DNA of 64,000 bases, from NCBI GenBank assembly GCA_038208295.1, contig JBBQYX010000005.1, positions 14,213 to 78,212 of the forward strand, given 5' to 3'. The position numbers and the translations under genes are program-made. Shown here in pieces: positions 657 to 51,488 of this stretch. The notes beneath the pieces are model-generated. The model was not told the DNA's origin, did no database searches, and worked only from the letters and a program-made list of their open reading frames with translations. How positions within the stretch are numbered: the stretch's first letter is position 1; each line of letters starts with the position of its first letter. The stretch is from Candidatus Nanopelagicales bacterium (GTDB lineage: Bacteria > Actinomycetota > Actinomycetes > S36-B12 > JBBQYX01).

Positions 657-1742
657 TCATCCGGCGGCGCGCGCTGCCAATCGGGTGACGGCCTCGGTCA
701 GATCATGGAATCGGGTGACCGCGCCGGGCAATTCGGCGGGCCAGCCAGGGCCGGCGACCGCGAGCAACGGGGCTGGGCGTTGCTCAGGGATCTCGTGCAG
801 CAACGCCAGCTCGCCCTGCGCCGGAGCGTGCGCCCACAGCATCACAGCCGCCGGACCGATCCGGCGGATCGCCGCGACCAGGGCATCGTGCGGTACGCGC
901 GCCCCCAGCACCCGACTGGGGATGCGCCGCTCGGCCAGCGCGGCGGCGGTTGCGAACAGCGGCAGCGAATGCATCTCCTCATCGGCACAGGCGAGCAGGA
1001 CCCCACCGGGTGCCAGCATGCCGGTGCGTACGCCAGATCCGTTGGCGGTGAAGCGATGGGTGATGGAACCCAGCGCCGCCATCAGGGTTTCCGACAGCAG
1101 GTGCTCGACCTCGACACCGCGGCCGGTCTGCTGCCACCGCTGACCAATGGTCACCAGGACGGGAACGAGCACGTTGTCCCAGGTCCAGACCACGCCGCGG
1201 TGCTCGAGCGTGTCCCGGATCAGCGCCCCACACGCCTCGGAGTCCATGGTGCTGGCCGCCCGTAGCAGACCCCTGCTGGCGGCTGCGGCGGCCCGCCCCG
1301 GCGAAGTGACTCCCGCCGATACTGGGTCCGCGACCAGGTGCGGCCTTCGCGGCTGATCGGGTCGATCCGGTCCGGCGTCCTGCGGATATCGCCCCGCGGC
1401 CAGGACGGCTCCAACTGGACCGCGCTCCAGCGATTCGGACGATCCCGCGGCGTCCCACACCGGCTGCGTTCCCACCGACGGCCGCATCGCGGCCCTGGCG
1501 GCATCCGCAGGCGGGATGCCCGTCACTATCAGGCGCCGCATGTGGTCCAGCCGGGCCAGGTCGGCGGCCGTATAACGACGATGCGCCCCAGCCGTGTGCG
1601 CGGACGGACCCAGCCCGTATCTGCGGTCCCAGGTACGCAACGTGGCCGGCGCGATGCCGAGGCGGCGGGCGACCGCCGCGACCGTCAGCCCCAGTTGCCC
1701 GTCATGCGGATCGGCAGCGGTACCAGACGTCGGGGTCGGCAC
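657..1742 (-). CDS. MerR-family transcriptional regulator with C-terminal cobalamin(B12)-binding-like domain
   Basis: ORF 657..1799. N-terminal MerR HTH (LTVAAVARRLGIAPATLRTWDRRYGL, RRYTAADLARLDHMRRL). The C-terminal part follows the B12-binding-domain layout (LLACADEEMHSLPLFATAAALAE...VMLWAH...AVAGPGW). I moved the start to GTG 1742 because GAGGAGG lies 6 nt upstream; 1799 is also possible. Confidence 0.75.
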   Translation of the reverse strand: MPTPTSGTAADPHDGQLGLTVAAVARRLGIAPATLRTWDRRYGLGPSAHTAGAHRRYTAADLARLDHMRRLIVTGIPPADAARAAMRPSVGTQPVWDAAGSSESLERGPVGAVLAAGRYPQDAGPDRPDQPRRPHLVADPVSAGVTSPGRAAAAASRGLLRAASTMDSEACGALIRDTLEHRGVVWTWDNVLVPVLVTIGQRWQQTGRGVEVEHLLSETLMAALGSITHRFTANGSGVRTGMLAPGGVLLACADEEMHSLPLFATAAALAERRIPSRVLGARVPHDALVAAIRRIGPAAVMLWAHAPAQGELALLHEIPEQRPAPLLAVAGPGWPAELPGAVTRFHDLTEAVTRLAARAAG

Positions 1743-2373: not shown

Positions 2374-4011
<1,638 letters not shown>

Positions 4012-4140
4012 TCACGGTGGATCGGCGGCACCGCAGCCGAAAGCCCCGGCGCCCGGCACAGCGGGCAGCCGGGGCTTCGGCGAGCGGTCGTACGCGGGGA
4101 CCTGTCTGGAGACGACAGGGATTACTTGACGACGCCAGAC

Positions 4141-4440
4141 CTACTTGACGACGACAGCGAGCACGTCGCGAGCGGAGAGGATCAGGTATTCCTCGCCGTT
4201 GTACTTGATCTCGGTGCCGCCGTACTTGCTGTAGACGACGACGTCGCCCTCGGCGATGTCCAGCGGAATGCGCTTCTCGCCGTCCTCGTCGAAACGCCCC
4301 GGGCCTACCGCGAGGACCTTGCCCTCCTGGGGCTTCTCCTTCGCGGTGTCCGGGATAACCAGACCGGACGCCGTCGTCTGCTCGGCGTCAAGCGGCTGGA
4401 CCAGGATCCGGTCCTCGAGCGGCTTGATGGTGACCGACAC
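4141..4440 (-). CDS. groES: co-chaperonin GroES
   Basis: 99 aa. [49 protein letters not shown]... is canonical GroES. Confidence 0.97.
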
Positions 4441-4529
4441 GGTCAGACCTCCCCCTTGCGGGATCGATTAAAAAGTATGGGTAATGCGCGCAACGGGCTC
4501 GTCGTCGCGGTGCCGAGCCAGTGCCCACG

Positions 4530-4723: not shown

Positions 4724-6973
4724 GTGTCGGACTGCCTATACCTGATGGCAACCGGGGAACGAGCCGGCAAGGCGGTCGTCGCCCTAGGCCTGGTGGAACT
4801 GCTGGCCCGCAACGTGGAACGGGTCGCGGTCTTCCGTCCCCTGGTGAGGTCGCGGGACGCCGACCCGCTGGCCGAGTTGCTCCTGGGTCACTTCCAACTT
4901 CCCCAGACCCACGCAGACGCAGTCGGGCTCAGCTACGCCGAGGCCGACGATCTCATCCAGGGCGGCGACCAGACCCGGTTCATCTCCTACGTCGTGAACC
5001 GGGTCGCCCGACTGCGCGAGAGCCACTCCTTCGTTCTGGTGATCGGCAGCGACTATGCCGGACCGGCGCCGGCGACCGAACTGGACCTGAACGCCGCGCT
5101 GGCGGCCAATGTTGCCGCTGCGGTGCTGGCGGTCGTGCACGGGGGGGCCCGTGACGGCCAGCACGGTCAGCCGTCAGGTCGATCCGGTGCCCGGGCGGAT
5201 GCGCTGGACGCGGCCGTGTCCGCCGCGCGGCACTCGGTGTCCGCGCACGGCGCGAGCCTGGTGGCCACGGTCCTCAACCGGGTTCCCCCCGCCGACCTGC
5301 ACGATCTTCGGCGCCGTTGGGCCAAGGCCGGACCGGCTCCGGTGTATGTGCTGCCGGACCTGCCGCTGATGGCGGCGCTGACCGTGGCCGAGGTCACCGC
5401 TGGCCTGCCCGCCGAGCAGGTGGCCGGTTCCACCCAGGCCCTGGAACGTGAGGTCGAGTCCTACGTCGTGGGCTCCGGGCATCTGCAGACGTTCCTGCCG
5501 CTGCTGACCGACGGCTGTTTCGTGGTGACCTCGGGCGACCGCTCCGACCTCGCCGTCGGCGCTGCGGCGGCTGCCTCGAGTCCTCGGCTACCAACCCCGG
5601 CCGGCATCCTGCTGACCAGCGGGCACATCCCAGATCCGTGGACCCGATCGTTACTGGACAGTTCCAGCCTGCCGGTACTGGCCGTCGACTCCGACACCTA
5701 CCACGCGCTGCACGCGTTGGAGCGGCTGCGCGGAGCCATCCGGCCGACCAGCCGCCGCAAGATCGCCGCCGCTCTGCGCTCCTTCGCAGACGGCGTCGAT
5801 TCCGAGGCGCTGACGGCACGGATCCGGCTGTCTCGCAGCGAGGTGGTGACACCGGCGATGTTCTCCCATGCCCTGCTCGAACGGGCCCGCGCGGATCGGC
5901 GCCACATCGTCCTGCCCGAGTCCGGGGACGAGCGGGTACTGCGGGCGGCGGAGGAACTCAGCCATGCCGGCGTGGTCGACCTGACTCTGCTGGGCAACCC
6001 CGACCACGTCCACGCGCACGCTCAACGCCTCGGTTTGGATCTGTCCAAGGTCACCATCCTCGACCCCGCCACCTCGCCGCTGCGCAGGGAGTTCGCCCAG
6101 TTGTACGCGGAACTGCGCGCGCACAAGGGGGTGACGGTCGACGCCGCCCGCGACGTCGTCCACGACCTGTCCTACTTCGCCACCCTGCTGGTCCATACCG
6201 GCCGGGTCGACGGGATGGTGTCCGGTGCGGCGCACACGACTGCGCACACCATCCGGCCGGCCTTGGAGATCATCCGTACGACGCCAGGTTCGTCCCTGGT
6301 CTCCAGCGCCTTCTTCATGTGCCTGCCCGACCGGGTTCTGGTCTTCGCCGACTGCGCGGTCAACCCCGATCCCACCGCCGAGCAGCTGGCCGACATCGCC
6401 GTGTGCGCGGCGGACACCGGCCAGGCGTTCGGGGTGGAGCCGCGGGTCGCGATGCTGTCGTACTCCACGGGCAGCAGTGGACACGGCAGCGACGTGGACA
6501 AGGTCCGGGCCGCAGTGGAGTCCGTCGCACAGCGCCGACCGGGCCTGCCACTGGTCGGCCCGATCCAGTACGACGCGGCCGTCGATCCCGAGGTCGGCGC
6601 CTCGAAGCTGCCGGGCAACCCGGTCGCCGGGCACGCCTCCGTGTTGATCTTCCCCGACCTCAACAGCGGGAACACCACCTACAAGGCGGTGCAGCGGTCC
6701 TCCGGAGCCATTGCTATCGGCCCGGTGCTCATGGGGCTACGACGCCCGGTCAACGACCTGTCCCGTGGATGCACGGTCGCCGACATCATCAATACCGTGG
6801 CAATCACCGCCGTGCAGGCGCAGCAGGTGGCCCGGCGGGCTGCGTCAGGCGTCGCTGCGCCGCCGGTCGATACGTCGGAGCAGGTCGAACCGTCGGAGCA
6901 GGTCGAACCGGCGGGCCCGGCGCCGGCGGGGTCGCTGGCCGGCTCGGTGAAGGCCGGCTCGGTGAAGAGGTGA
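4724..6973 (+). CDS. pta: phosphate acetyltransferase, long form (N-terminal DRTGG/AAA-like domains plus PTA domain)
   Basis: 749 aa. GTG start with GAGGGAG 8 nt upstream. The C-terminal half ...RHIVLPESGDERVLRAAEEL...VSGAAHTTAHTIRPALEII...FADCAVNPDP... is typical Pta. The C-terminal tail is repetitive. Confidence 0.92.
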   Translation: MSDCLYLMATGERAGKAVVALGLVELLARNVERVAVFRPLVRSRDADPLAELLLGHFQLPQTHADAVGLSYAEADDLIQGGDQTRFISYVVNRVARLRESHSFVLVIGSDYAGPAPATELDLNAALAANVAAAVLAVVHGGARDGQHGQPSGRSGARADALDAAVSAARHSVSAHGASLVATVLNRVPPADLHDLRRRWAKAGPAPVYVLPDLPLMAALTVAEVTAGLPAEQVAGSTQALEREVESYVVGSGHLQTFLPLLTDGCFVVTSGDRSDLAVGAAAAASSPRLPTPAGILLTSGHIPDPWTRSLLDSSSLPVLAVDSDTYHALHALERLRGAIRPTSRRKIAAALRSFADGVDSEALTARIRLSRSEVVTPAMFSHALLERARADRRHIVLPESGDERVLRAAEELSHAGVVDLTLLGNPDHVHAHAQRLGLDLSKVTILDPATSPLRREFAQLYAELRAHKGVTVDAARDVVHDLSYFATLLVHTGRVDGMVSGAAHTTAHTIRPALEIIRTTPGSSLVSSAFFMCLPDRVLVFADCAVNPDPTAEQLADIAVCAADTGQAFGVEPRVAMLSYSTGSSGHGSDVDKVRAAVESVAQRRPGLPLVGPIQYDAAVDPEVGASKLPGNPVAGHASVLIFPDLNSGNTTYKAVQRSSGAIAIGPVLMGLRRPVNDLSRGCTVADIINTVAITAVQAQQVARRAASGVAAPPVDTSEQVEPSEQVEPAGPAPAGSLAGSVKAGSVKR
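6875..6967 (+). repeat. in-frame tandem duplications in the pta 3' end
   Basis: TCGGAGCAGGTCGAACCG x2 (6875..6910) and GCCGGCTCGGTGAAG x2 (6938..6967). They encode SEQVEP-SEQVEP and AGSVK-AGSVK, ending 3 nt before the GTGA pta/ackA junction. Confidence 0.9.
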
Positions 6974-8254: not shown

Positions 8255-8313
8255 CAGGGCAATTCAGCAGGGCGCGTCAAGCAGGGCGCGTCAAGCAGGG
8301 CACTGCCGCCGAC
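8251..8313. repeat. 13-14 bp tandem repeat abutting the stop of the 8314..9693 gene
   Basis: Units are TCAGCAGGGCAAT / TCAGCAGGGCGCG / TCAAGCAGGGCGCG / TCAAGCAGGGCACTGCC.... Each starts with TCA (TGA on the minus strand), directly followed by the real stop at 8314..8316. Confidence 0.8.
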
Positions 8314-9693
8314 TCAGACGTTGGCGCCCGCCTCCTGACCGGCGGCCTCCTGCTCAGTGAGCTGCTCGTCCTGATGGTGCTCGTCCTGGTGCTGGGCGTC
8401 AGTGCCCTCCGGGTCAGTGCCCTCCGGGTCAGTGACTTCCTGCGCAGTGCCCTCCTGCGCAGTGACCTCCTGGGCAGTGATCTGCTGGCCAGTGACGGCA
8501 GCCGCGTCGGCGGCCAGGTCGGTGGCCACATCGGCGGCGGTGAACGCCGACGGCGCGGTCGCCGCCGCGGCGAGGACCGAGGCGCGCCAGCCGGCCAGCG
8601 GCAGCGCGGCCATCGTCCGCTCGCGGGACACGTCGGTCTTCCACTCGGTCCCGTGCACGCCCAGGTCGGCGATCGGCTCCCAGTCCCGGTCACACACCCG
8701 GCGGCCGCGCGAGACGGCGTCCGGCAGAGTCACCCCGCACAGCAAGCAACAGCCACGCGCCGGTGCCCTACGTGCCTCCTGCACCACCGACACCCGCTCC
8801 AGTACGGTCCGTCGGCCTGCCCTGGCATCCTCCGACAGGCCACCGCGATGCACGGCCACCGCCTCGGGCCCGGCGCAGCCGAGCGGGCCGCTGAGCAGCC
8901 CGCACAACACGTACCCGGCCTGCAGGGCATCGGCCACTGGGCGCACCGCGATCACAGCGCCGGGCAGCTGCGCAGCGTCGGTGTCCGCGGCCAGCGCCGC
9001 GTCGGGCTGCCCAAGCCGCTCCGGCTCGGCCGCCGGCCACAGCAACCAGCCCTGCGCAGCCAGGGCCACGGCCAATTCCTGGTCGGCAACCTCGGCACTG
9101 AGCACCCACACCGGGGTCGCGCGGTCCACCAGGTGCACCCGGATCACCAGATCGCCGTCGCCGACGGGCGCGGACACCGCGGTCTGCGGATACAGCAGCA
9201 GTTCGTCGGGACGGAACGTCACTCGCAACCGCTGCTCCAACCCGTGCCAGGTGGGCAACGTGACCTGCCCGGCGGGCAGCGGGCGGGGGTTGGTCAGGAA
9301 ACTGTCGCGCACGTAGTCAGGTCGTTCCGCCGGCCGTACGCCCGCCAGCCATGGGTCGGGCGGCGGTGCCGGGGTCGCCCGGGGCGCTCGCGCTACGCCC
9401 GCCGTGCTCGCCCGAGGCGCGCGGGGCGTAGCGGTCTTCCGGGGTGCGGCGGCCTCCCGTTCGGCCGCGGCGATCCGGGCGGCGGCCACCTCGGCCGTCT
9501 GCCAATGCTCGATCCGCCCCGGCACGCGTACGCAACCGGAGTCCTCCTCGCTGAGCAGGCCGCGAGCCGTCGCGATGTCCAGGACCCGGCCGGTCTGGCG
9601 CATGACGGCAGACTGGAAGTCACCCACCGTCCACGTCGGGCCGGCCAGGGTCGTCATCTGCTGGGCCACTGCGCGTAGGGCCTCATCCATCAT
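8314..9693 (-). CDS. hypothetical protein with Cys cluster and acidic C-terminal 5-residue repeats
   Basis: 459 aa with protein-like composition, whereas the antisense ORFs are Arg/Gly/Pro/His-rich shadows. No family recognised. Contains CCLLCGVTLPDAVSRGRRVC and the C-terminal ITAQE/VTAQE/GTAQE/VTDPE/GTDPE repeats. Confidence 0.7.
   Translation of the reverse strand: MMDEALRAVAQQMTTLAGPTWTVGDFQSAVMRQTGRVLDIATARGLLSEEDSGCVRVPGRIEHWQTAEVAAARIAAAEREAAAPRKTATPRAPRASTAGVARAPRATPAPPPDPWLAGVRPAERPDYVRDSFLTNPRPLPAGQVTLPTWHGLEQRLRVTFRPDELLLYPQTAVSAPVGDGDLVIRVHLVDRATPVWVLSAEVADQELAVALAAQGWLLWPAAEPERLGQPDAALAADTDAAQLPGAVIAVRPVADALQAGYVLCGLLSGPLGCAGPEAVAVHRGGLSEDARAGRRTVLERVSVVQEARRAPARGCCLLCGVTLPDAVSRGRRVCDRDWEPIADLGVHGTEWKTDVSRERTMAALPLAGWRASVLAAAATAPSAFTAADVATDLAADAAAVTGQQITAQEVTAQEGTAQEVTDPEGTDPEGTDAQHQDEHHQDEQLTEQEAAGQEAGANV
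8398..8502 (-). repeat. seven 15-bp in-frame tandem units in the 3' end of the 8314..9693 gene
   Basis: Units of pattern NNCAGTGNCNTCCTG (for example GTCAGTGCCCTCCGG x2 perfect), encoding the acidic pentapeptide repeats. Confidence 0.85.
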
Positions 9694-12771: not shown

Positions 12772-13770
12772 ATGACCACGAGGCGCACTGGTGTGACCTC
12801 CCGAGTCCTGGCGGCCTCAGCGGCGGCGGCGCTGGTTGTCGGCGCCTTGGGTCTGGTCGGGGCATCGGACACCTCGGCGGCCACCGCCACCGCCATCTCG
12901 GCGCTCGATCCGGCACCGACAGACCCGGCTGTCCCCCCGACTGTGCCGTCGCCGACGGACAGCGCGACTCCGACTCCGACTCCGACCGCGTCGCCGACGC
13001 CAACGCCAACCGCAACGCCAACGCCAACGCCAACGCCAACGCCAACGCCAACGCCAACGCCAACGCCAACGACGAAGCCGACACCCAAACCGACTCCGAA
13101 GCCCAAACCCACCCCTAAACCCAAACCCACCCCTAAACCGGCGCCGCTGCCGCCTGTCACCCGCAAGGCGCCCCTGCAACTGCCGTTGAAGTACGGAGTC
13201 CGGCAGTACTCCGTCCTCGTCCTGCAGAATCGACTCAAGTGGCTGGGCTACCCGATCACCGACAAGCCCGGTTACTACCAGCGGTCGACCGAGCGCGCGA
13301 TCACCCGGTTCCAGAGCAAGTTCTTCCTCAACACCAGCGGCGTCGTCACCCGGTCCACCTGGACCAAGGTCGTGTCCGTGAGCGGCCGAGTGAATGCACT
13401 GCCGTCCGCGTGCCGGACCCGTACCTCGCTATGCATCGACAAGCGCGCAAAGGTCCTGCGCTATGTCCGCAACGGCACAGTGCTGACGACCCTGGACGCC
13501 CGGTTCGGGACGTCATCGACGCCCACCCCCAATGGGACCTTCCGGGTCTACCGCAAAAGCCGCGACCACTACTCCAGCCTCTACGGTTCGTGGATGCCGT
13601 ACGCGATGTTCTTCCGTGGCGGTGTGGCGGTGCACTACTCGCCGTACTTCGCCGCTGACGGCTATTACGGCGGCTCGCACGGTTGCGTCAACATCCGGGA
13701 CAAGGCCGGTGTCGCCCGGCTGTACGACCGGGTCCCGATCGGCACCCGGGTCGTCGTCTACGGCCGCTAG
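12772..13770 (+). CDS. L,D-transpeptidase (signal peptide, Thr/Pro/Lys linker, PG-binding domain, YkuD domain)
   Basis: Inner ATG 12772 with GGAAGGA upstream. N-terminus [29 protein letters not shown]_binding_1-like [10 protein letters not shown]...ITRFQSKF. YkuD catalytic GGSHGCVNI. Confidence 0.88.
12997..13068 (+). repeat. hexanucleotide microsatellite (ACGCCA)n in the ldt linker
   Basis: 12 units with one imperfect (ACCGCA at 13009), encoding (TP)n. It is followed by AAACCCAAACCCACCCCT-type repeats to about 13140. Confidence 0.9.
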
Positions 13771-18095: not shown

Positions 18096-18923
18096 TCAAC
18101 CTGCCGTCGGCCCGGCCGCAAGGTGCAGACGGGCGAAGGCGAGGGCCTCGGCCAGGTCATATTCGCGCTCGGCCCGGGACGCGGCTTTGCGGGTGGACAC
18201 CTCGACCACGACGTTGCCGGTGAAGCTGCGCCGGGCCAGGGACTCCAGCAGCGCGGCCCCGGGCTGATTGCCGCGGCCGGGGATCAGGTGTTCGTCCCGG
18301 GCGGCGCCGGTGCCGTCGGCCAGGTGGATGTGCACCAACCGGTCACCGAGGTCCTCGGCGATCTCCAGGGCGTCAGATCCCGAGACCGAGGTGTGCGACA
18401 GGTCCAGGGTCGTATGCGGATAGTCCTCTGCTCGTACGTCCCAACCCGGGAGGTACGCGGCCAGCTCCCGCGAGCGGGCCCGCCACGGAAACATGTTCTC
18501 CACGGCGAAACGGACCGCGGTCTCCTCGCCCATCCGGTGCAGCCCGGAGACGAACTCTTTGGCGTAGTCCCGCTGCCAGCGGAACGGCGGATGCACGACC
18601 ACGGTCGAGGCGCCGAGGGTCTCGGCGGCGGCCCGGGCCCGGACGAGCTTGCCCCAGGGATCAGTACCCCAGACCCGTTGAGTGACCAGCAGGCAGGGCG
18701 CGTGCACCGCCAGGATCGGCATGCCGTAGTGGTCGGACAGCCGCCGCAGCGACTCCGGATCCTGACTGACCGGGTCGGTCATCACCATGACCTCGATCCC
18801 GTCGTAGCCCAGCCGGGCGGCGATCTCGAAGGCGGCCGCGGTCGACTCGGGGAACACCGAGACGGTGGACAGGATGACCTGGGCGTCCGGGATGGACACG
18901 CTCATGGCGGCTGGCACACTCAT
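18096..18923 (-). CDS. sugar phosphate isomerase/epimerase (xylose isomerase-like TIM barrel)
   Basis: 275 aa. GYDGIEVMV...AVHAP...VVVHPP...FAVENM...LDLSHT...HIHLADG pattern of the AP_endonuc_2 TIM-barrel family. Confidence 0.85.
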
Positions 18924-19008
18924 GACGCCGCCAGATTCATGACGCCGTCAGATTCATGCCGCCGCCAATTTCAAGGCCGCCGCCCAAAGTCATGGCCGCC
19001 GCCAACGG
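18902..19008 (-). repeat. six-unit 17-19 bp tandem array spanning the ATPase stop and the isomerase start
   Basis: Units start at 18902, 18920, 18937, 18954, 18971 and 18990. Five of six begin TCAT (ATGA on the coding strand); the fifth begins TCAA. Confidence 0.9.
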
Positions 19009-21338
19009 TCCGTGACCAGCGTCGCTACCCATACCAGCAACGCTCCCACGCCACCGGCGGCCAGCGCGACCAGGCCGTCCTCGTCATAGGACGGGCTCAG
19101 CGCGAACATGTTGGACAGGAAGGGCACGAACAGGACCAGCAGGAACATCGCCACCATGAGGGCCACGATGGCCAGCCGGATCCCGTTCAACGGTCGGGCG
19201 GACTGCACCAGCACGGTCGTGGTCACGATGAACAGCGTGATGGTGGCCGTCACCCGGGAGGATTCGATGGAATCCGAGCCGACGGTCAGGCTGAGGTAGT
19301 AGGCGACGAAGGCGCTGGCGGCCGCGATCAGTCCCGCCGGCGCCGCGAACAGGACCACCCGCTTGAAGAAGCCCGGGCGGAAGCGTTCGGTGTTGGGCAT
19401 GAGCGCGAGGAAGAACCCGGGTATGCCGATGGTCAGCGCACTGATCAGCGACAGGTGCCGCGGCAGGAAGGGGAACGGGACCGTGAACACGCCGGTCGCG
19501 ATGGCGAGCACCATCGCGTAAAACGACTTGGTCAGGAAGACATCGGACACCCGTTCGATGTTCCCCAGGACCCGACGACCCTCGGCCACCACACTGGGCA
19601 TCACCGAGAACTTGTTGTCCATCAGCACGATCTGGGCGACCGCCCGGGTCGCCGCCGATCCCGACCCCATGGCGATGCCCAGGTCCGCACTCTTCAGCGC
19701 GAGGACGTCGTTGACGCCGTCTCCGGTCATCGCGACCGTATGCCCGCTGTGGTGCAGGGCGTCCACCATCTGCTGTTTCTGGGCAGGTGTGACGCGTCCG
19801 AACACGCTGTGGGTCTCCAGGACGGCGGCCAGCTCGGCGGTGTCGGTCGGCAGCTCCCTGGCATCGACCGGGTCCTGCGCCCGCGGGATCCCCGCCCGGG
19901 CGGCGATGGCGCCCACCGTCACCGGGTTGTCCCCGGAGATCACCTTCAGTTCCACACCCTGGCTCAGGAAGTACGCCACCGTGTCGGGGACGTCCGGGCG
20001 TAACGCCTGGTCGATGACGACCAGCGCCGCCGCGCGCAGCGGTCCAGTCCCCTCTTCTGGGTCCGGCCCCTTGCCATCGGCCGCGGTGGATCGGGCCAGC
20101 AGCAGAACCCTCGCCCCACCGGCGGCCTGCTCATCGGCCAACGCCCGAGCCGGGTCGTCCGCGGGCAGCAGGATCTCCGGAGCACCCAGCAGCCAGCTGC
20201 CCTGCCCGTCGAACGTCGCGGCGGACCATTTGCGGGCGCTGGAGAACGGCACGGTGGCCGTCAACTCCCAACCGCCTGGAGCCTCGTAGGCACTGGCCAC
20301 CGCCGCCAGGGTGGGGTTCGGGCTGTCCTCGCTGCCCCCCAGGGCCCCCAGCGCTGCCGCCACCGGTGCCGCCTCGTCCAGGCGGATCACGTCGCGCACC
20401 TGCATCCCGGGCTGGGTCAGAGTGCCGGTTTTGTCCACGCAGACCGTGTCGACGCGCGCCAGGATCTCCACCGCTGGCATCTCCTGAACCAAGGCTTTGC
20501 GCCCGGCCAGCCGGATGACCGCAACGGCCATCGCGATACTCGTCAGCAACACCAGCCCTTCGGGCACCATCGTCACCATCCCGGCGATTGCGCCGCGGAT
20601 GGCATCGCGCAGGCTCTGGTCGCTGTGCAGCTGGGACCACAGCAGGAGCCCCCCGATGGGGAGCAGGAAGTACGACACGATCCGGATGAACCGCATGATC
20701 GAGTCACGCAGCTCTGATTCGGATAAAACGTACTTCTTGGCCTCGGCGGTCAGCCCGGCAGCGAAGGAGTCGCGACCGATCCGGGTGGCCCGGTAGACCC
20801 CCGAGCCCGCCACCACGAACGACCCGGACATGGCCTGGTCGCCGACCGCCTTGTCCACCGGGTCGGCCTCGCCGGTGAGCAGACTCTCGTCGATCTCCAG
20901 GCCGGTCTCGACCAGGACCTCCCCGTCGACGACGAGTTGGTCGCCGGGGCGCAGCACGATCACGTCGTCCAGGACAACCTGCGGCGGCGAGATCTCCTCC
21001 TCGCGGCCGTCGCGGCGGACCAGCGGCCGAACCTCGCCGAGCACCGACAGTTTCGCCAGCGCCCGCGCCGCCCGGTATTCCTGGATGATCCCGATGCCGG
21101 TGTTGGCCAGGATGACGAAACCGAACAGCGAGTCCTGCCACGGCGCCACGATGATCATGACGATCCACAGCGAGCCGAGCAGCGCGTTGAACCAGGTGAA
21201 GGTGTTGGCCCGGACGATGTCGCCGAGGCTGCGGCCGTGGACGTCGGGGGCGTCGTTGACCTGCCCGTTCGCGACCCGCTCGGCGACCTGCGCGGCGCTC
21301 AGCCCACGGGCGACGGTGTTGTCAACGTCGTGGATCAT
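18990..21338 (-). CDS. cation-translocating P-type ATPase (P2-like, CtpE-like)
   Basis: Inner ATG 21338 (MIHDVDNTVARGLSAAQVAERVANGQVN) of ORF 18990..21908. Motifs LTGEADPV, MVPEGL, CVDKTGTLT and MTGDGVNDVLALK. Confidence 0.9.
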   Translation of the reverse strand: MIHDVDNTVARGLSAAQVAERVANGQVNDAPDVHGRSLGDIVRANTFTWFNALLGSLWIVMIIVAPWQDSLFGFVILANTGIGIIQEYRAARALAKLSVLGEVRPLVRRDGREEEISPPQVVLDDVIVLRPGDQLVVDGEVLVETGLEIDESLLTGEADPVDKAVGDQAMSGSFVVAGSGVYRATRIGRDSFAAGLTAEAKKYVLSESELRDSIMRFIRIVSYFLLPIGGLLLWSQLHSDQSLRDAIRGAIAGMVTMVPEGLVLLTSIAMAVAVIRLAGRKALVQEMPAVEILARVDTVCVDKTGTLTQPGMQVRDVIRLDEAAPVAAALGALGGSEDSPNPTLAAVASAYEAPGGWELTATVPFSSARKWSAATFDGQGSWLLGAPEILLPADDPARALADEQAAGGARVLLLARSTAADGKGPDPEEGTGPLRAAALVVIDQALRPDVPDTVAYFLSQGVELKVISGDNPVTVGAIAARAGIPRAQDPVDARELPTDTAELAAVLETHSVFGRVTPAQKQQMVDALHHSGHTVAMTGDGVNDVLALKSADLGIAMGSGSAATRAVAQIVLMDNKFSVMPSVVAEGRRVLGNIERVSDVFLTKSFYAMVLAIATGVFTVPFPFLPRHLSLISALTIGIPGFFLALMPNTERFRPGFFKRVVLFAAPAGLIAAASAFVAYYLSLTVGSDSIESSRVTATITLFIVTTTVLVQSARPLNGIRLAIVALMVAMFLLVLFVPFLSNMFALSPSYDEDGLVALAAGGVGALLVWVATLVTDRWRRP

Positions 21339-21343
21339 CACGG

Positions 21344-22273
21344 CTACGGCTCCAGGGCATCCAGGCGGCGGAGGATGACACCCTCCCGCAGCGCCCAGGG
21401 GCAGATGTCCACCGAATCGACCTGCAGCAGTTCCATCGCCGCGTGCGCGACCATCGCGCCGGCGATCAGCTGCGCGGCGCGACCCTCGGACACCCCCGGC
21501 AACCCGCGGCGCTCCTTCTCCGGCATCGCAGCCAGCTTCGGTACCCACACGGCCAGGTCGTCCCGGCTCAGGGTCCGTCGGACGAACGGCCCCTCGCTGG
21601 ACGGCGCGGCCCCGGCGATTCGGGCCAGCTGCTTGAAGGTCTTGGAGGTCGCCACCGCCCGCATCGGCGGTCCGCTGCGGACCACCCGGCCGGCGACGTC
21701 GGCCACCGTCGCGCGTACGTGCTTGCGCAGGGCCCGGATCTCCTCGGCCGCGGGCGGGTCGCTGCCGAACCGGTCCCGGGTGAGGCGACCGGCGCCCAAG
21801 GGCAGCGAGACGGCCACCTCCGGCTCCTCGTCCACCCCGTTGGCGATCTCCAGGGAGCCCCCGCCGATGTCCAGGACGAGCAGGCGGCCGGCGGACCATC
21901 CGTACCACCGACGTACGGCGAGGAAGGTCAGACGGGCCTCCTCGTCCCCGGACAGCACCACCAGCTCGACCCCGGTCCGGCGCTGGACCTCTGCCAGGAC
22001 TTCCTCGCCGTTATCCGCCCCACGGATCGCCGAAGTGGCGAAGGCGACGATCTCGGTGACCCCCATGTCCTCGGCCACCTGCATGGCCTCGCTGGCGAAC
22101 TCGCACAGGGCGTTGACCGCCGCCTCGTCGACCCGGTTGTCCGCGTCGAGGTGCTCGGCCAGCCGCAGCGCAATCTTCTGCGAGTAGGCCGGCAGGGGGG
22201 CGGCGCCATAGTGCGCGTCGACCACGAGCAGGTGCACCGTGTTGCTGCCCACGTCCAGAACGCCCAGTCGCAC
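21344..22273 (-). CDS. ppx: exopolyphosphatase (Ppx/GppA family)
   Basis: GTG 22273 gives [17 protein letters not shown]..., then [10 protein letters not shown] and [11 protein letters not shown]. The rest of ORF 21344..24178 is a non-coding extension. The stop is 5 nt before the ATPase ATG. Confidence 0.88.
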
Positions 22274-26502: not shown

Positions 26503-26606
26503 CGTAGCGTCCCGTCGAGCGCTCGATCCGGCGACACCCTACGGTCGTCGCCAGCTGATGAACGGCTCCGTTGGCAGCCGTGGGCAGGTCGACAGGGAGG
26601 AGTCGG

Positions 26607-27533
26607 GTGGCGAGCGATGGGGTACGGGTAGTCAGCACGGCCGAGGAGTCGGTTGCGGCGGTCGTGCGCTGGTTCGACTCCGCCCAGCGCGACCTGCCGT
26701 GGCGTGCCGCCGACCGTACGGCCTGGGGGGTGCTGGTCTCGGAGTTCATGCTGCAGCAGACGCCGGTGGCCCGGGTGCTGCCGGTCTGGCAGGAGTGGCT
26801 CGCGCGCTGGCCAGCGCCGGCTGCATTGGCCGCTGAACCCGCCGGTGCCGCCGTACGGGCGTGGGGGCGGTTGGGTTATCCGCGCCGCGCACTGCGGTTG
26901 CACGCTTCGGCGAGGCAGATCGTAGAAAAACATGCCGGCCAGGTGCCCGAGCAGGCCGCGGATCTGCTTGCGCTGCCCGGGGTCGGTGAATACACCGCAA
27001 ACGCCGTTCTCGCCTTCGCCTTCGGGCGCCGAGCCGTCGTCCTGGACACGAATGTCAGGCGGGTGTTGGCCCGCGCGTTCGATGGTGTCCCAGTAGCCGC
27101 GGCGCACCAGACCCAACGCGAGCGGCTGGCGGCCGACTCGATCTGGCCGGCGGCCGACGACCTGGCTTCGCACTGGTCAGCGGCAGCCATGGAACTCGGC
27201 GCGCTGGTCTGCCTGCCCAGTCCCCGATGCAACGACTGCCCGCTCGCCGAGAGCTGCGCATGGGTGCGCGCCGGGCGCCCGGACACCGCAACCGGCGGTC
27301 CACGCAGCCCGGCCAGGCGACAGCCGACCTTCGCCGACACGGACCGGGCGGCTCGTGGCGCGCTGCTTGCCACCGTACGCGCGCAGGCCGACCCGCTCCC
27401 GGCAATAGCACTGGCCGACGCGTGGGGCCAGCAGGCGCAGCGGGATCGGGCACTGACCAGCCTGGTGACCGACGGCTTGCTCGTCCAGCTGCCGGATGGG
27501 CGGTACGCCCTGCCCGGGGAGCACCGGGCCTGA
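26607..27533 (+). CDS. mutY: A/G-specific adenine DNA glycosylase MutY
   Basis: GTG 26607 with GGGAGGAG 4 nt upstream (ORF 26571..27533). WGVLVSEFMLQQT, HhH LPGVGEYTANAV and the 4Fe-4S Cys cluster CLPSPRCNDCPLAESC. Confidence 0.9.
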   Translation: MASDGVRVVSTAEESVAAVVRWFDSAQRDLPWRAADRTAWGVLVSEFMLQQTPVARVLPVWQEWLARWPAPAALAAEPAGAAVRAWGRLGYPRRALRLHASARQIVEKHAGQVPEQAADLLALPGVGEYTANAVLAFAFGRRAVVLDTNVRRVLARAFDGVPVAAAHQTQRERLAADSIWPAADDLASHWSAAAMELGALVCLPSPRCNDCPLAESCAWVRAGRPDTATGGPRSPARRQPTFADTDRAARGALLATVRAQADPLPAIALADAWGQQAQRDRALTSLVTDGLLVQLPDGRYALPGEHRA

Positions 27534-27543
27534 CCGCAGCCGC

Positions 27544-27625
27544 CGCAGATTAGCCGTCACCGCAGATTTGCCATCACCGCAGATTGCCGTCAACGCAGAT
27601 TGCCGTCAACGCAGATTGCCGTCAA
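27544..27625. repeat. 16-17 bp intergenic tandem repeat (5 units)
   Basis: CGCAGATTAGCCGTCAC / CGCAGATTTGCCATCAC / CGCAGATTGCCGTCAA x3, with degenerate partial copies on both flanks (27534..27640). Confidence 0.9.
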
Positions 27626-32044: not shown

Positions 32045-33624
32045 CGGCGAGTGTCGGGCTTGACCAGCGGGAACAGAACGGTCTCCCTGATCCCCAAACC
32101 AGTCAGCGCCATCAGCAACCGGTCGATACCCATGCCGACCCCGCCGCTGGGTGGCATGCCGTATTCGAGCGCCCGTAGAAAGTCCTCGTCCACGCTCATT
32201 GCCTCCACGTCGCCGCCGGCGCGAAGTGCAGCCTGGGCGACGAGTCGCTCCCGCTGCACGACCGGGTCGACCAACTCGGAGTATCCGGTGGCCAGCTCGA
32301 ACCCGGCGACGTACAGATCCCACTTCTCCACCGCTCCTGGCAGTGACCGGTGCGCGCGCACCAGCGGGGAGGTGTCCTCGGGGTAGTCCCGTACGAAGGT
32401 CGGGGCCTGCAGCCCCGCCACGACGTGGTGCTCCAGCAACTCCTCGACATACTTTCCGGGCACCCAGCCGGCCTGGGCCTCGATACCCACCTGGGCGCAC
32501 AGCCCCTGCAATGCAGTGATCGGGGTTTCGGGCGTGATCTGCTGCCCGACGGCCGCGCTGACAGCCGGGTAGACCTCGACGGTGTCCCACGGCCCGGACA
32601 AGTCCCGTTCGCTGCCGTCGGCGAGGGCGAACAGCAGCGACCCGTGCACCGCGAGCGCGGCAGCCTGGATGACCTCGCGCGTGGTGGTCGCCATCACGTC
32701 GTAGTCGGCGTACGCCTGATAGAACTCCAGCATCGCGAACTCCGGGGAGTGCGAGGTGTCTGCACCCTCGTTCCGGAAGTTTCGGTTGATCTCGAAGACC
32801 CGCTCCAGGCCACCCACGACGCAGCGCTTGAGGAACAGTTCCGGCGCGATGCGCAGGTACAGGTCCAGATCGAAGGCGTTGGAGTGCGTGACGAAAGGCC
32901 GCGCCGTCGCCCCGCCGTGCATCGTCTGCAGCATCGGAGTCTCGACCTCGAGGTAGTCCCGGTCCACGAAGGACCGCCGCAGGCTGGCGACCGTATTCAC
33001 CCGCAGCCGTGCGGTCCGCTGCGCCTCGGGACGTACGATCAGGTCGACATACCGCTGCCGGGCGCGGGTCTCCTCGTTCAGCGGCCGGTGCGCAACGGGC
33101 AATGGCCGCAATGCCTTCGCGGCGATGACCCAATTGTCGGCGAGGACACTGAGTTCGCCGCGGCGGCTGCTGATGACCTCTCCGTGCACGAACACGTGGT
33201 CGCCGATGTCGACCAGTGACTTCCACTCGGCCAGGGACTCTTCGCCGACCCCGGCCAGGCTGATCATCGCCTGGAGTTCCGTACCGTCACCGGACCGCAG
33301 TGTGGCGAAACACAACTTGCCGCCGTTGCGCAGGAACATCACCCGCGCGGCCACCCCGACGTGCTCGCCGCTGGCACTGTCGGTCGCGAGGTGCCCGAAC
33401 TGCGTGCGTACCTGCGCGAGGGTGTGCGTCACGGGCACCGACACCGGGTAGGCCTGCGCACCGGATTCCAGTAGGCGGGACCGCTTCTCCCGCCGGACCC
33501 GCAACTGCTCGGGCAGGTCAGCGTCAACCTCGACTGCTTCCGCGATGTCGAGCAGGGCCGGGTCGACAGGTGAGTTCGAGGGCGGGTCAGTGGCGGTCAC
33601 AGGGGCGGTCACAGGGGCGGTCAC
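32041..33624 (-). CDS. lysS: lysine--tRNA ligase (class II)
   Basis: 527 aa. OB-fold anticodon-binding region and class II motifs ([26 protein letters not shown]). Three alternative GTG starts result from the junction repeat. Confidence 0.95.
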
Positions 33625-33630
33625 AGGGGC
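33595..33630 (-). repeat. perfect 12-bp x3 tandem repeat at the coaX stop / lysS start junction
   Basis: GGTCACAGGGGC x3; each unit carries GTGA on the coding strand. Confidence 0.9.
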
Positions 33631-34400
33631 GAAGGGTAACCGGCCGGGGTATTCCGGTCGAAGACCAGCCGCAGGCCGATGAGGGTGAGGTCGGGTTCGT
33701 AGACGGTGATGGTCTCCGACTCCGGCACCACCAGCGGAGCCAGCCCGCCGGTCGCGATGACCGCGGTCACCGGGCCCGTCTCGGCGACGATGCGTCGCAC
33801 CAGGCCGTCCACCTGGCCGGCGAACCCGTACAACGCCCCGGATTGCAGCGCCTCGACGGTGTTCTTGCCGATCACGGATCGCGGCCGGACGAGGTCGACC
33901 TTGCGCAGTTGCGCTGCCCGCGCAGCGAGGGCGTCCAGGGAGATTTCGATGCCCGGAGCCAGCGCGCCACCCAAGAAGGCGCCGCTGGCCGAAATCACGT
34001 CCAGGTTCGTCGAGGTGCCGAAGTCGACCACGATCGAAGGCCCGCCGTACAGGTGGTGGGCAGCCATGGTGTTCACGATCCGGTCGGCACCGACCTCCTT
34101 AGGATTATCGGTGAGTACGGAGACCCCGGTGCGGGTGCCCGGTTCGACGATGACCGCCGGGACGTGGTCGTAATACCGCGTGAGCATGGCGCGCATCTCG
34201 CGCAGGACCGACGGCACCGTCGAACACAACGCGACACCGGTCACGGTCGGGACGTCGGTGAGCAGGCCCCGGAACGTCAGGACCGTCTCGTCGGCGGTCG
34301 AGCGGGCGTCGGTCTTGATCCGCCAGGAATGCTGCAACTTGTCCCCGTCGAACAGGCCGAGGACCGTGTTGGTGTTTCCTACGTCGATGGCGAGCAGCAT
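33621..34400 (-). CDS. coaX: type III pantothenate kinase
   Basis: Inner ATG 34400 ([17 protein letters not shown]...). [16 protein letters not shown] and IATGGLA motifs. ATGA overlap with the nadC stop. Confidence 0.92.
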
Positions 34401-39319: not shown

Positions 39320-40546
39320 TCAGCCGGTCACCGGCAACGTCTCGTAGCCACGCAGCACGAAGGACGGTCTGCGCACCGGGGCGGCCGCCAACTGCAGGCC
39401 CGGCAGCCGTTCCAGCAATATGGGCAGCGAGGTGGTGAGTTCCACCCGCGCCAGGGGCGCACCGAGGCAGAAGTGGATACCCACGCCGAAGGATAGGTGC
39501 GGGTTCGGGTCCCGCCGGGCATCGAAGGAGTCCGGCTCGGCGAATACCTCGGGGTCCCGGTTCGCCGAACCCAGCAGTGCGGAGATCTTGTCACCGGCCT
39601 GCAGCCGAACGCCGGCGACCTCGGTGTCGACCTTGGCGGTCCGCTCGAACAGGTGCAACGGGGAGTCGAAACGCAGCATCTCCTCCACTGTCGACGGGGC
39701 CAGGCCCCAGGGATCGGCGACGACAGCCGCCAATTGGTCCGGGTGCTGCAGCAGGGCGACGACACCATTGCCGAAACCATTGACGCTGGCCTCGTGCCCG
39801 GCGTTCAACAGCAACACGGCAGTCGCGATGAGTTCCTGCTCCGACAGGCGTTCACCCTCGACCCGGGCCTGCGCCAGGTCCGTGAGCAGGTCCTCCCCGG
39901 GGTGCCGCGTCCGGTCGGCGGCGAGTTCGCGCACGTATTGGGAGAACTCGGCGCACGCCCGCTGGGCACGGTCGTCCTGCTCGGGAGTCCGGTCGAGTTC
40001 GTACATCGCCACGATGTCCTGGGACCACGGACGCAACAGCGGCCGATCGGCGGCCGGGAAGCCAAGGAGTTCCGCGATGATGATGACCGGCAGCGGTTCG
40101 GCATAGTCAGCGAGCAGGTCGAACTGGCCGGTGTCCCGCAATTTCTCGGTCGCCGAGTCCAGCAGTCCCGCTGATGCCGCGCGGACCCGCGGCCGAAGCC
40201 GCTCGACATGCCCCCGGCCGAACGCCTGGGCGACCAGGCGGCGCAGCCGAGTGTGTTTGGGCGGTTCGGAGTCGAGGATCGAATCGGCGTGCAGCCAGTT
40301 GAACGTGTCCCACAACTCGATTGGTTCACGGGTGGTGAAGATGCGGCCCAGGTCCTTGTGCCGCAACACCGCGTTGACGTCGGCGTGCCGAGCCGCCAGC
40401 CAGCTGCCGGAGTCGGTGTCTCGCACCGGAGCGCCGACCGAGCGCATCCGGGCGAAAGCCGGGTAGGGGTCGGTCACGAACTCCGGGTCCGCGGGCCGGA
40501 AGCCAGCTGCTGCCGCATCCGGTGCAGTTGGCGAGTCGGCGGTCAC
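39320..40546 (-). CDS. cytochrome P450
   Basis: 408 aa. ExxR (VEEMLRFDSP) and the heme-thiolate loop FGVGIHFCLGAPLA. Its GTG overlaps the stop of the upstream gene (GTGA). Confidence 0.93.
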   Translation of the reverse strand: MTADSPTAPDAAAAGFRPADPEFVTDPYPAFARMRSVGAPVRDTDSGSWLAARHADVNAVLRHKDLGRIFTTREPIELWDTFNWLHADSILDSEPPKHTRLRRLVAQAFGRGHVERLRPRVRAASAGLLDSATEKLRDTGQFDLLADYAEPLPVIIIAELLGFPAADRPLLRPWSQDIVAMYELDRTPEQDDRAQRACAEFSQYVRELAADRTRHPGEDLLTDLAQARVEGERLSEQELIATAVLLLNAGHEASVNGFGNGVVALLQHPDQLAAVVADPWGLAPSTVEEMLRFDSPLHLFERTAKVDTEVAGVRLQAGDKISALLGSANRDPEVFAEPDSFDARRDPNPHLSFGVGIHFCLGAPLARVELTTSLPILLERLPGLQLAAAPVRRPSFVLRGYETLPVTG

Positions 40547-41919: not shown

Positions 41920-42485
41920 AACCCTGCGGACCGCTGCTCGCCCAGCGCAGCCAGCCGATCTCGCAGCCCGGCGGCGACATCCGGCGGAAGGCCGGGGATC
42001 GTGGCATCGGTGGTGGCGGCAGCGGTGTGCAACTGGACAGTGGCCACTCCCATCGCCCGGTCCAGCGGGCCGGCGGCGAGGTCGACGAGTTGCATCCGTC
42101 CGTACGGCACGATGACCAGGCGCCGGAACAGCACCCCGCTGGTGACCAGCAGGTCATCTGCTCGCTCGCTGTAACCGAACGAGGCAACGCGGCGGCCGAT
42201 GAACCACCAGCCCCACAGCACCCCGACGGCAGTCGCAGCGAGCACGAGGGCACCGATCCACTTCGGCACCGCCGGGAGCAGGAGCAGGAGCACCGCGGCG
42301 GCCAGCGGGAACACGGCCGTGATGGCCAGGCTGATGCGCCGAGCGGTGGCCAGTCGCGGGGACACCGGCGTCCACGGCGTACCGGCCGGTGCGAACGGGT
42401 CCGCGGCGCCTCGGTCCTGAAGTCCAACCGCCGACGCCGGATCCGGCGATTGCTGCTCGGCAGGCTGCGGCGCGTCAGGGGACAT
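41916..42485 (-). CDS. membrane protein with single bPH domain, YdbS-like
   Basis: 189 aa. TM hairpin then LLVTSGVLFRRLVIVPYGRMQLVDLAAGPLDRAMGVATVQLHTAA. GTGA overlap with the YdbT-like gene. Confidence 0.75.
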   Translation of the reverse strand: MSPDAPQPAEQQSPDPASAVGLQDRGAADPFAPAGTPWTPVSPRLATARRISLAITAVFPLAAAVLLLLLPAVPKWIGALVLAATAVGVLWGWWFIGRRVASFGYSERADDLLVTSGVLFRRLVIVPYGRMQLVDLAAGPLDRAMGVATVQLHTAAATTDATIPGLPPDVAAGLRDRLAALGEQRSAGL

Positions 42486-46281: not shown

Positions 46282-46985
46282 CCAACCGTCGCACGGGCCC
46301 GGGCCCAGGGGGTAAGCACCCGTTCCAGGCCCAGCAGGGCCACCTCGAAGGCCACCGCGAGAACGACACACGCCAACGTCGCCGTCATGATCTTGGCGTG
46401 GTAGAAGTTGTCGACGAACCCCCCGAGGATCATGGTGCCGAAGCCGCCGTGGCCGACCAGCGCACCGATGGTGACCAGACCGACGGTGGACACCGTCGCC
46501 AACCGCACCCCCGCCAGGATCGAGGGCAGCGCAAGCGGCACCTCGACCCGCCAGAGCAACCGGTTGCGGCCGTACCCCATCCCGACGGCGGCATCGACCA
46601 CATCGACGGGCACCCCGGCGAGGCCGACCAGCATGTTGCGCAGCACGATCAGCAGCGCGTACACCGCCAGGGCGACGATCACCGTCACCGGCGACAGGCC
46701 GAAGACCGGCCACAGGACGGTGATCAGCGCGAGCGACGGGATCGTATAGAGGATCCCGGAGACCCCGAGCACTGCCGGCTCCAGCCGCCGGTAGCGTCGC
46801 ACCAGGACCGTCACCGGCAGCGCCACCAGGATCGCCAGCAGCACCGACGCGATCGTGATCACGATGTGCTCACGGCCAGCGGTCAGGAGTTCGCCGGTGT
46901 GCTCGCGCACATAGGTGAGGTCGAACCAGGGGTTCGGCGGCGGCTCGTAGCCGTCCAGAGCCCGCACACCGATCGCGAGGAGCAC
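46278..46985 (-). CDS. ABC transporter permease (Opu/Pro type)
   Basis: 235 aa. DAAVGMGYGRNRLLWRVEVPLALP. The start is uncertain (46985, 46967 or 46910). Confidence 0.85.
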   Translation of the reverse strand: MLLAIGVRALDGYEPPPNPWFDLTYVREHTGELLTAGREHIVITIASVLLAILVALPVTVLVRRYRRLEPAVLGVSGILYTIPSLALITVLWPVFGLSPVTVIVALAVYALLIVLRNMLVGLAGVPVDVVDAAVGMGYGRNRLLWRVEVPLALPSILAGVRLATVSTVGLVTIGALVGHGGFGTMILGGFVDNFYHAKIMTATLACVVLAVAFEVALLGLERVLTPWARARATVG

Positions 46986-50869: not shown

Positions 50870-50879
50870 CGAAGGCCCA

Positions 50880-51488
50880 TCAGCGGCCGTACATCAGCGA
50901 CATCGCTTCGGCCCGGGTGGCCGGATCCCGCAATTGGCCGCGGACGGCGCTGGTCACGGTGCGCGCCCCGGGCTTGCGGACACCGCGCATGCTCATGCAC
51001 AGGTGTTCGCACTCGAGGACAACGATGACCCCGCGCGGCTCCAGGATCCGGACCAGCGCATCGGCGACCTGGCTGGTCAGCCGCTCCTGGACTTGTGGGC
51101 GCTTGGCGAAGACGTCGACCAGCCGGGCCAGTTTGGACAGCCCGGTGATCCTCCCCGACGCATCCGGTATGTACCCCACGTGCGCCACCCCGTGGAACGG
51201 GACCAAGTGGTGCTCGCAGGTGGAATAGACCTCGATGTCGCGAACCAGCACGAGCTCGTCATGCCCGAGGTCGAACGTGGTTGTGAGCACGTCGTCGGGG
51301 CTCATCCGCAGCCCGGCGAACGTCTCGGCATAGGCGCGGGCAACCCGGGCGGGGGTCTCGCGCAGGCCGTCGCGGTCGGGGTCCTCCCCGACCGCGATCA
51401 GCAGCTCGCGGACGGCTCGTTCGGCCCGGGCCTGGTCGTAGGGCCGCTGCGACCAGGCCTGCGGGATCGTTACCGGATCGATCGCCAC
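50880..51488 (-). CDS. folE: GTP cyclohydrolase I
   Basis: GTG 51488 (202 aa). [45 protein letters not shown]. Confidence 0.93.

Follow-up and report, generated by a model that had tools for sequence, protein, structure and literature searches.

The locus lies on the minus strand of the window, as we call the whole 64-kb stretch of DNA analyzed here, where the end of a Ppx/GppA-like gene is followed by genes encoding a HAD-IC P-type ATPase and a xylose-isomerase-like TIM-barrel protein, with a tandem array at the junction between the latter two (Table 1). The C-terminal peptide of the Ppx/GppA-like gene matches the Pfam Ppx-GppA gene of Actinopolymorpha alba DSM 45243 (locus L051), and only 2 nt separate its stop codon from the ATPase start, in keeping with tight operon packing. 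At its maximum extent the ATPase ORF covers 18990..21908 (972 codons); ATPase homologues align only from about residue 195 of this ORF, and the true start is taken to be GTG 21341 or ATG 21338. The encoded protein ends in ...TLVTDRWRRP, followed by the stop codon TGA 18992-18990. The isomerase-like protein (275 aa when counted from ATG 18923, the start to which the array would relay; identical to P0001) is encoded by an intact ORF that shares 82-85% identity with its relatives and carries no signs of decay. A further ATG in the same frame, at 18905 (MSVSIPDA...), corresponds to the orthologous start of the related locus L082 (VSVRIPDA).

Table 1. Features of the ATPase-isomerase locus in the window, and repeats of stop-start junctions at other loci.
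Feature	Positions	Strand	Description and basis
Ppx/GppA-like gene, 3' end	21344..21420	minus	Stop TAG 21346-21344; sequence reading
HAD-IC P-type ATPase gene	18990..21341	minus	Pfam E1-E2_ATPase and Hydrolase; NCBIfam TIGR01494 above cut-off
Tandem array	18902..19002	minus	Six junction-like units GGCGGCGKC-xTGA-NNYTG; sequence reading and Tandem Repeats Finder
Junction 1	18990..18993	minus	ATGA; ATPase stop and ancestral start position of the downstream gene; 22/33 syntenic relatives
Mini-ORF 1	18937..18993	minus	18 codons and stop TGA 18939-18937; opens at ATG 18993
Mini-ORF 2	18920..18940	minus	MNLAAS, 6 codons and stop TGA 18922-18920; frame reading
Degenerate TTGA unit, alternative 6-codon ORF	18954..18974	minus	Opens at TTG 18974; chain 18974 to 18957 to 18940 to 18923
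Possible mRNA hairpin	18905..18967	minus	UGGCGGCGGCAUGA... paired with ...GCCAGCCGCCA; folding
Xylose-isomerase-like TIM-barrel gene	18096..18923	minus	Sugar phosphate isomerase/epimerase family; Pfam PF01261
L022 array	4797-4860		11 nt, four copies, GGTCGTC(A/G)TGA; mini-ORFs MRSS, MRSS, VRSS; between isomerase and ABC-transporter ATPase
L051 array (Actinopolymorpha alba DSM 45243)	2757-2859		TGAs exactly 17 nt apart, six times; between Ppx/GppA and BadF-type ATPase
L028 duplication	1635-1685		32 nt, clean; chimeric ORF MIDVKL-DGLPS-stop (ATPase N-terminus and Ppx C-terminus)
L016 duplication (Streptomyces)	3885-3935		23 nt, relative to L015
L456 duplication (Nonomuraea)	~42270-42330	minus	47 nt; 16-codon chimeric ORF before AspRS-like gene
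L080 partial case	4805-4845		26 nt; chain ends at a 21-codon ORF, not at a long gene

The xTGA tetranucleotides of the six array units lie at 18993, 18974, 18957, 18940, 18923 and 18905, with spacings of 19, 17, 17, 17 and 18 nt; all of them read ATGA except the one at 18974, which is TTGA. On the minus strand the array runs ...ACGGACCGTTGGCGGCGGCC ATGA CTTTGGGCGGCGGCC TTGA AATTGGCGGCGGC ATGA ATCTGACGGCGTC ATGA ATCTGGCGGCGTC ATGA GTGTGCCAGCCGCC ATGA GCGTGTCCATCCCG... Tandem Repeats Finder reported positions 18920-19005 as a repeat with a period of 17, 4.9 copies, 80% matches and a score of 89, which places the array among VNTRs or minisatellites in the sense of head-to-tail units of 10-100 bp. 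On the minus strand of the window, ATGA reaches its highest density here, with five in 92 nt against a background of 1.9 per kb. When the array unit was searched for across the 64 kb, three matches were obtained, all of them within the array, compared with 0.12 expected.

Junction 1 joins the ATPase stop to mini-ORF 1, the ATG of mini-ORF 2 overlaps the mini-ORF 1 stop, and the TGA of mini-ORF 2 overlaps the isomerase ATG 18923. The original prediction had described this chain, and its coordinates, reading frames, two mini-ORFs and ATGA overlaps all proved correct on the minus strand, as did its count of six tandem units of 17-19 bp and its arithmetic, according to which a 17-nt period (2 mod 3) chains ATGA junctions. 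The ATG at 18957 is an in-frame Met codon inside mini-ORF 1. It is also the point at which a second path enters the chain, as the alternative ORF from TTG 18974 ends at a TGA (18956-18954) that overlaps ATG 18957, giving two converging relay paths. Since TGAs occupy all three frames, a single indel cannot open a continuous frame across the array. It should be noted that chains of overlap-linked mini-ORFs are as frequent in shuffled sequences (three links, 140 real versus 144 shuffled; four links, 30 versus 23), and the mini-ORF chain by itself is therefore not evidence. The non-random features at this locus are the repeat structure and its exact placement between two real genes.

Origin of the array

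Using the isomerase protein as query, we collected 80 loci from species-representative genomes (best identity 84%), mostly Micrococcales, Nanopelagicales and other Actinomycetes MAGs, together with Streptomyces, Actinomadura and Actinopolymorpha. The same P-type ATPase is located directly upstream of the isomerase in 33 of the 80 loci. In 22 of these 33 syntenic loci the isomerase frame starts exactly at a -4 overlap (ATGA or GTGA) with the ATPase stop, and the ATPase ends in ...TDRWRR(A/P) followed by the stop codon, as it does in the window. Three further loci (L007, L014 and L020) harbor a single 3-codon bridge ORF at the ATPase-isomerase junction.

The relative that is closest at the N-terminus (L082; 84% identity) has a lone GTGA junction, ...TGGCGGCGTCC GTGA GCGTTCGCATCCCCGAC..., also given as ...GACCGCTGGCGGCGTCC GTGA GCGTTCGCATCCCCGACGCC... 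This junction encodes TDRWRRP-stop and VSVRIPDA, and the window has the corresponding flanks, TDRWRRP-stop and MSVSIPDA, 88 nt apart. Each array unit consists of the last ~9 nt of the ATPase gene (GGCGGCGKC) and an xTGA, and the last units also include the first isomerase codons, with MSVPAA standing beside MSVSIP at the isomerase start. Because the relatives have single overlaps, L082 has the same flanks and the units are derived from the junction itself, the array is best read as a lineage-specific tandem duplication, and we consider it very probable that it arose by duplication of the ancestral stop-start junction. This agrees with the part of the original prediction that invoked repeated duplication of an ancestral ATGA junction, as the relatives have a single ATGA or GTGA; the other part, in which selection keeps the coupling intact, is not supported by this locus taken alone.

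Additional copies of the locus were sought in several collections. The 90%-identity protein cluster of the isomerase has one member, and other members of the species were not found there; an exact-protein look-up yielded nothing beyond a Logan contig of 1.3 kb, which stops within the array, and no copy-number variant; and DNA scans of the JGI metagenomes for the flank peptide pattern and for a two-unit pattern gave zero matches.

In the nearest 40 isomerase homologues the protein opens with an N-terminal linker that is not conserved; it is about 3-45 residues long and almost always begins with MT, MS or MN, that is, with what an ATGA start encodes. Given that this linker is variable among homologues, the 6-residue extension resulting from the use of ATG 18923 should be harmless. 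We also observed that the isomerase N-termini (P0002-P0040; loci L001-L004 and L083) are hypervariable and of low complexity, and they might be in-frame remnants of junction expansions.

Possible translation across the array

At the array starts, no Shine-Dalgarno-like match above background was found (dG of -1.8 to -6.3 versus -3.95 +/- 2.6 kcal/mol). Neither a sigma-70-like promoter nor an intrinsic terminator was found in the array, which also had no match in Rfam. Inside the possible hairpin would lie ATGs 18957, 18940 and 18923, and its end coincides with the A of ATG 18905. The fold of 136 nt has an MFE of -64.7 kcal/mol (z = -1.82), a value equalled by 10 of 200 shuffled sequences, so that the predicted structure is weak and barely exceeds shuffled sequence. 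With a 4-nt share of stop and start, co-directional genes, and no terminator or promoter found between them, the locus has the sequence layout of an NTGA-coupled pair; the lack of a Shine-Dalgarno-like match is an indirect sign that isomerase translation may depend on that of the ATPase.

Translation of the downstream gene has been reported to be strictly coupled to upstream-gene translation in 13 of 14 overlapping gene pairs (Huber et al.; PMC6728339). Reinitiation drops off sharply as the distance grows, with almost none left by ~20-38 nt, whereas the final 15 nt of the upstream ORF are enough to sustain it (Huber et al.; PMC10666635); its efficiency is variable and set by distance and context (PMC10666635, PMC6728339). 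In M. tuberculosis, NUGA overlaps dominate and 58% of the ORFs starting there lack a canonical Shine-Dalgarno sequence, a uORF can itself overlap another uORF, and Rho-dependent termination may be kept down by tight coupling (bioRxiv 10.1101/2022.06.01.494293). Since reinitiation fades by ~20-38 nt, an untranslated gap of 70-88 nt should uncouple the isomerase from the ATPase.

We propose that slipped-strand or tandem duplication of an NTGA overlap gave rise to a lineage-specific micro-VNTR, in which each copied unit comprises the last ~9 nt of the ATPase gene, an overlapping stop and start, and a short run of downstream sequence. With a unit of 17 nt (2 mod 3), the ORF opened at each start closes at the TGA of the next unit, and the 70-88 nt between the two genes thus constitute a chain of -4 overlaps rather than an untranslated spacer. 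Ribosomes terminating on the ATPase could then arrive at the isomerase after terminating and reinitiating three times in succession, passing from the ATPase stop and ATG 18993 through the 18-codon ORF to the TGA overlapping ATG 18940, and from there through the 6-codon ORF to the TGA overlapping ATG 18923, where the isomerase begins. Such a relay would keep some translational coupling, which a plain gap of equal length would abolish, and junction duplications may persist because coupling is kept. In the light of these published findings, the chain of -4 overlaps through the 18- and 6-codon ORFs is the only layout that could preserve termination-reinitiation at this locus. We favor, with moderate confidence, a functional and possibly attenuated ribosome relay from the ATPase to the isomerase. 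Three serial reinitiations may be inefficient; if so, the effect of the array may mostly be to lower isomerase output.

The intact state of this relay can be examined by arithmetic. To do this, all 3^5 residue classes of the five spacings were enumerated, and variants of the real sequence were also simulated. By overlaps or in-frame reading, the isomerase frame can be reached from the ATPase stop in 227 of the 243 abstract spacing combinations. When the real sequence was altered, such a path was kept by 27 of 30 variants that lost or gained whole units, by 334 of 420 with a single-base indel and by 236 of 252 with a substitution. As the path survives most variants, finding the relay intact here does not speak for selection: any unit with an NTGA and a length of 2 mod 3 relays by construction, and an intact relay is the default outcome. 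The claim of the original prediction that selection maintains coupling is therefore not supported by the locus alone, where nearly all copy-number variants keep the path. The periods found at other loci, which are 2 or 0 mod 3 and in no case 1, lend modest indirect support to selection on coupling.

Junction duplications at other loci

We surveyed 2.0 Mb of sequence, including the window and related loci (0.70 Mb) and 1.3 Mb of independent DNA from Nonomuraea gerenzanensis and Streptomyces sp. NBC_01384. Genes were called heuristically, as long ORFs with high GC3 and with GC1 > GC2. Tandem arrays between co-directional genes, for which the original prediction had suggested a genome-wide scan, do recur: the 2.0 Mb contain five further clean gene-to-gene NTGA junction duplications and one partial case, L080 (Table 1). 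The array of A. alba DSM 45243 (L051) comprises five ORFs of 5-6 codons joined by GTGA or TGATG, and its sister species (L060) has one GTGA at this junction, followed by a downstream protein that is 81% identical. Similarly, the junction duplicated in L028 is single-copy in its relatives L031, L034 and L040. The periods of 11, 17, 32, 23, 26 and 47 nt (L022, L051, L028, L016, L080 and L456, respectively) are all 2 mod 3.

A seventh case is located in the window itself (33588-33631, minus strand, GTGA 33624), where an in-frame junction duplication of 12 nt (CCGCCCCTGTGA) is present in 3.7 copies with 96% matches. The upstream gene ends in ...GYPSPL-stop on the first GTGA, at which the downstream gene of 527 codons also starts, so that this gene gains a (VTAP)n N-terminus. 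It is the sole 0-mod-3 case in the survey, and a 1-mod-3 period was not found among the gene-to-gene junction duplications of the 2.0 Mb. In comparison, the four gene-following NTGA repeats that reach no downstream gene have periods of 28, 41, 69 and 21 nt, which cover all mod-3 classes.

With the window's array left out, as it was ascertained by its relay, six of the seven junction duplications fall in class 2 (binomial p ~0.007 versus a uniform distribution, a post hoc test). Two survey cases surfaced first in a relay-based scan and were later recovered by an unbiased scan. Across the whole survey, about 8 of the 546 coding ORFs with an NTGA end have a junction duplication; the independent 1.3 Mb yielded a clean case at 1 of 344 NTGA-ending ORFs, which indicates that junction duplication is uncommon. 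Taken together, the periods are suggestive of a filter that favors coupling-preserving duplications, a pattern drawn from 6-7 loci with heuristic gene calls and in part post hoc. As a counter-point, 0-mod-3 duplications should be tolerated equally, yet the one at window position 33624 is the only one found. In IMG/VR, scans for four or five ATGA spaced by 17 or by 16 nt gave at least 120 matches each, many of them on AT-rich giant-virus contigs, and among the matches listed the fetched loci that passed a strict junction test numbered two for the 17-nt spacing versus two for the 16-nt spacing.

Several candidates were discarded as junction duplications. Those at L446+ 24976, L446- 32816, L459- 39635 and L462- 33894 reach no downstream coding gene, and the one at window position 4126 is an antisense shadow of groEL that actually corresponds to a duplicated 3' end of groES.

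Other repeats and bridges were noted during this analysis. The groES-groEL spacer (~4110-4145, minus strand) carries a 19-nt duplication of the groES 3' end and stop, ...GTCGTCAAGTAG GTCTGG CGTCGTCAAGTAA...; both genes (groES 4141-4467, groEL 2374-4011) were confirmed by Pfam. At 27544-27625 of the window, a 16-nt unit is repeated five times in tandem (CGCAGATTGCCGTCAA; 91% matches) directly behind an HhH-GPD DNA-repair gene's stop (gene at 26571-27533, plus strand); this array lies between apparently convergent genes, contains TTGA or GTGA on the minus strand and forms no gene-to-gene relay. A 4-codon bridge ORF, MGLR-stop, at 50869-50880 (minus strand) joins a TGATG stop to a folP-like ATGA start (MTTCHPRG...VMGILNVTPDSFSDGG), with no obvious duplication, and resembles the bridge GTGA-VSTS-stop-GTGA at 46862-46873. 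Dense short tandem repeats at 8266-8612 (periods of 12, 14, 15, 30 and 45 nt) and 12963-13139 (periods of 6, 18 and 24 nt) are probably repetitive coding sequence. In Nonomuraea and Streptomyces, NTGA repeats with periods of 28, 41 and 69 nt (L446 minus ~32700-32830, L459 minus ~39480-39640 and L462 minus ~33760-33900, respectively) are located just downstream of a gene's NTGA stop, with no coding gene at their far end; the repeat unit of L462 includes TTGACA and has the look of a promoter region that was duplicated. Finally, the 11.85-Mb N. gerenzanensis replicon NZ_LT559118.1 is filed in PLSDB as "plasmid I", although it is chromosome-sized.

Alternative explanations and known analogues

The array could be a neutral VNTR, a tolerated product of slippage, with the isomerase initiated de novo at ATG 18923 or 18905 in a Shine-Dalgarno-independent manner and the mini-ORF chain as a by-product. 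A relay is indeed the default result of duplicating an NTGA junction, and the same genome has arrays with non-multiple-of-3 periods and no coding role, such as those at 27544-27625 and at the groES 3' end. Furthermore, a canonical Shine-Dalgarno sequence is missing from many actinobacterial ORFs, and initiation independent of it is common in Actinobacteria. However, the relatives start the isomerase at a -4 overlap, a configuration that was strictly coupled in 13/14 pairs (PMC6728339), no Shine-Dalgarno-like match or promoter that would serve independent initiation was found in the array, and the periods of independent junction duplications are unevenly spread over the mod-3 classes. We therefore regard a neutral origin with de novo initiation as rather unlikely. 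It seems improbable that the array instead attenuates or decouples the isomerase, through three lossy reinitiations or a sequestering hairpin, either as tuning or as a mildly deleterious mutation. The variable, distance- and context-dependent efficiency of reinitiation would allow for such an effect, and the hairpin (18967-18905) could mask starts, but this hairpin is marginal when compared with shuffles (z = -1.82) and the isomerase ORF is intact, without decay, at 82-85% identity to its relatives. Attenuation is, besides, a question of extent and does not conflict with the relay model.

A non-multiple-of-3 tandem repeat at the 5' end of a gene also recalls phase-variable contingency loci, in which slippage would toggle isomerase expression on and off. 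In this array the frame is not toggled, as 27 of 30 whole-unit copy-number changes keep the path, and units that are only ~80% alike would be poor slippage substrates; a change in copy number without frame switching rules out this type of variation, to which we assign a very low probability. The MAG-like source contig and the Logan contig that breaks inside the array might point to an error of assembly or sequencing in a metagenome-assembled genome. Against this, Logan contig L081 (SRR19962013), an independent assembly, is identical to the window from 18958 downstream and reproduces 18958-18902 exactly, the array of ~100 nt is below read length and its diverged units provide unique k-mers, and such arrays are present in genomes of isolates (A. 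alba DSM 45243 and Nonomuraea gerenzanensis); an artefact is thus hardly credible.

The functional relay from the ATPase to the isomerase, which we favor, shares features with several described systems. Mycobacterial interspersed elements known as MIRUs are ~40-100 bp long and form a dispersed, apparently mobile family in Mycobacterium, with a common sequence at many loci. By analogy of layout, the MIRU is the closest described analogue of the array. According to a 2025 review, MIRUs occupy start codons and contain an ORF that is coupled at -4 nt, so that downstream translation changes little when one is inserted (PMC12548453, citing Supply et al., 1997). Both are tandem repeats placed between co-directional operon genes or at a start codon, and, as in a MIRU, the internal ORFs of the array overlap the flanking stop and start by -4 (ATGA 18993, 18940 and 18923). 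Unlike MIRUs, it is not dispersed, with no copies outside the array in the 64 kb and none in the JGI metagenomes; its units measure 17-19 nt (11-47 nt in the other cases) and derive from the local junction, with codons of the gene on either side; the units of different junction arrays are unrelated in sequence between loci; and the relatives belong to Micrococcales, Nanopelagicales and other Actinomycetes (MAGs) rather than to mycobacteria.

In relation to NTGA (-4) coupling (Huber et al., 2019, 2023; PMC6728339, PMC10666635), each link of the array is a canonical ATGA and the ancestral junction is a single overlap. The known cases are, however, single overlaps of two protein-coding genes, whereas here three overlaps run through ORFs of 18 and 6 codons, and the links in L022 run through ORFs of only 4 codons. 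The mycobacterial "delivery" ORFs or uORFs are alike in that a short non-functional ORF serves solely to pass the ribosome on at a 1- or 4-nt overlap, but these sources place them in 5' leaders and do not present them as tandem copies of gene junctions (Shell et al., 2015, via PMC12548453; bioRxiv 10.1101/2022.06.01.494293). Simple-sequence contingency loci share with the array a non-multiple-of-3 tandem repeat at the 5' end of a gene, although a change in copy number preserves the expression potential here and produces no switching. An earlier description of junction-derived tandem arrays was not found in our literature search, from which the older literature was largely absent.

A wider reading, which we put forward only tentatively and consider possible but doubtful, is that junction micro-VNTRs form a general, unrecognized class in high-GC Actinobacteria, in which stop-start overlaps undergo tandem duplication time and again, only arrays with a period of 2 mod 3 (keeping a -4 relay) or 0 mod 3 (keeping the frame) persist through selected coupling, the copy number tunes the ratio of downstream to upstream protein, and the hypervariable N-terminal MT/MS linkers of downstream genes are fossils of former expansions. 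If the relay works, operons with stop-start overlaps would tolerate insertions at their most sensitive point, since duplicating the junction also duplicates the coupling signal. The arrays would then represent natural constructs with which to address the minimal ORF able to pass on a ribosome (4 codons in L022), the dependence of efficiency on the number of links, and a possible protection from polarity by unbroken translation of the gap, questions that reporter studies have so far approached only with engineered spacers. The mod-3 pattern, if confirmed genome-wide, would provide a readout of selection on translational coupling from sequence only. For the annotation of high-GC genomes, such arrays account for odd gaps between the genes of an operon and for starts that are ambiguous.
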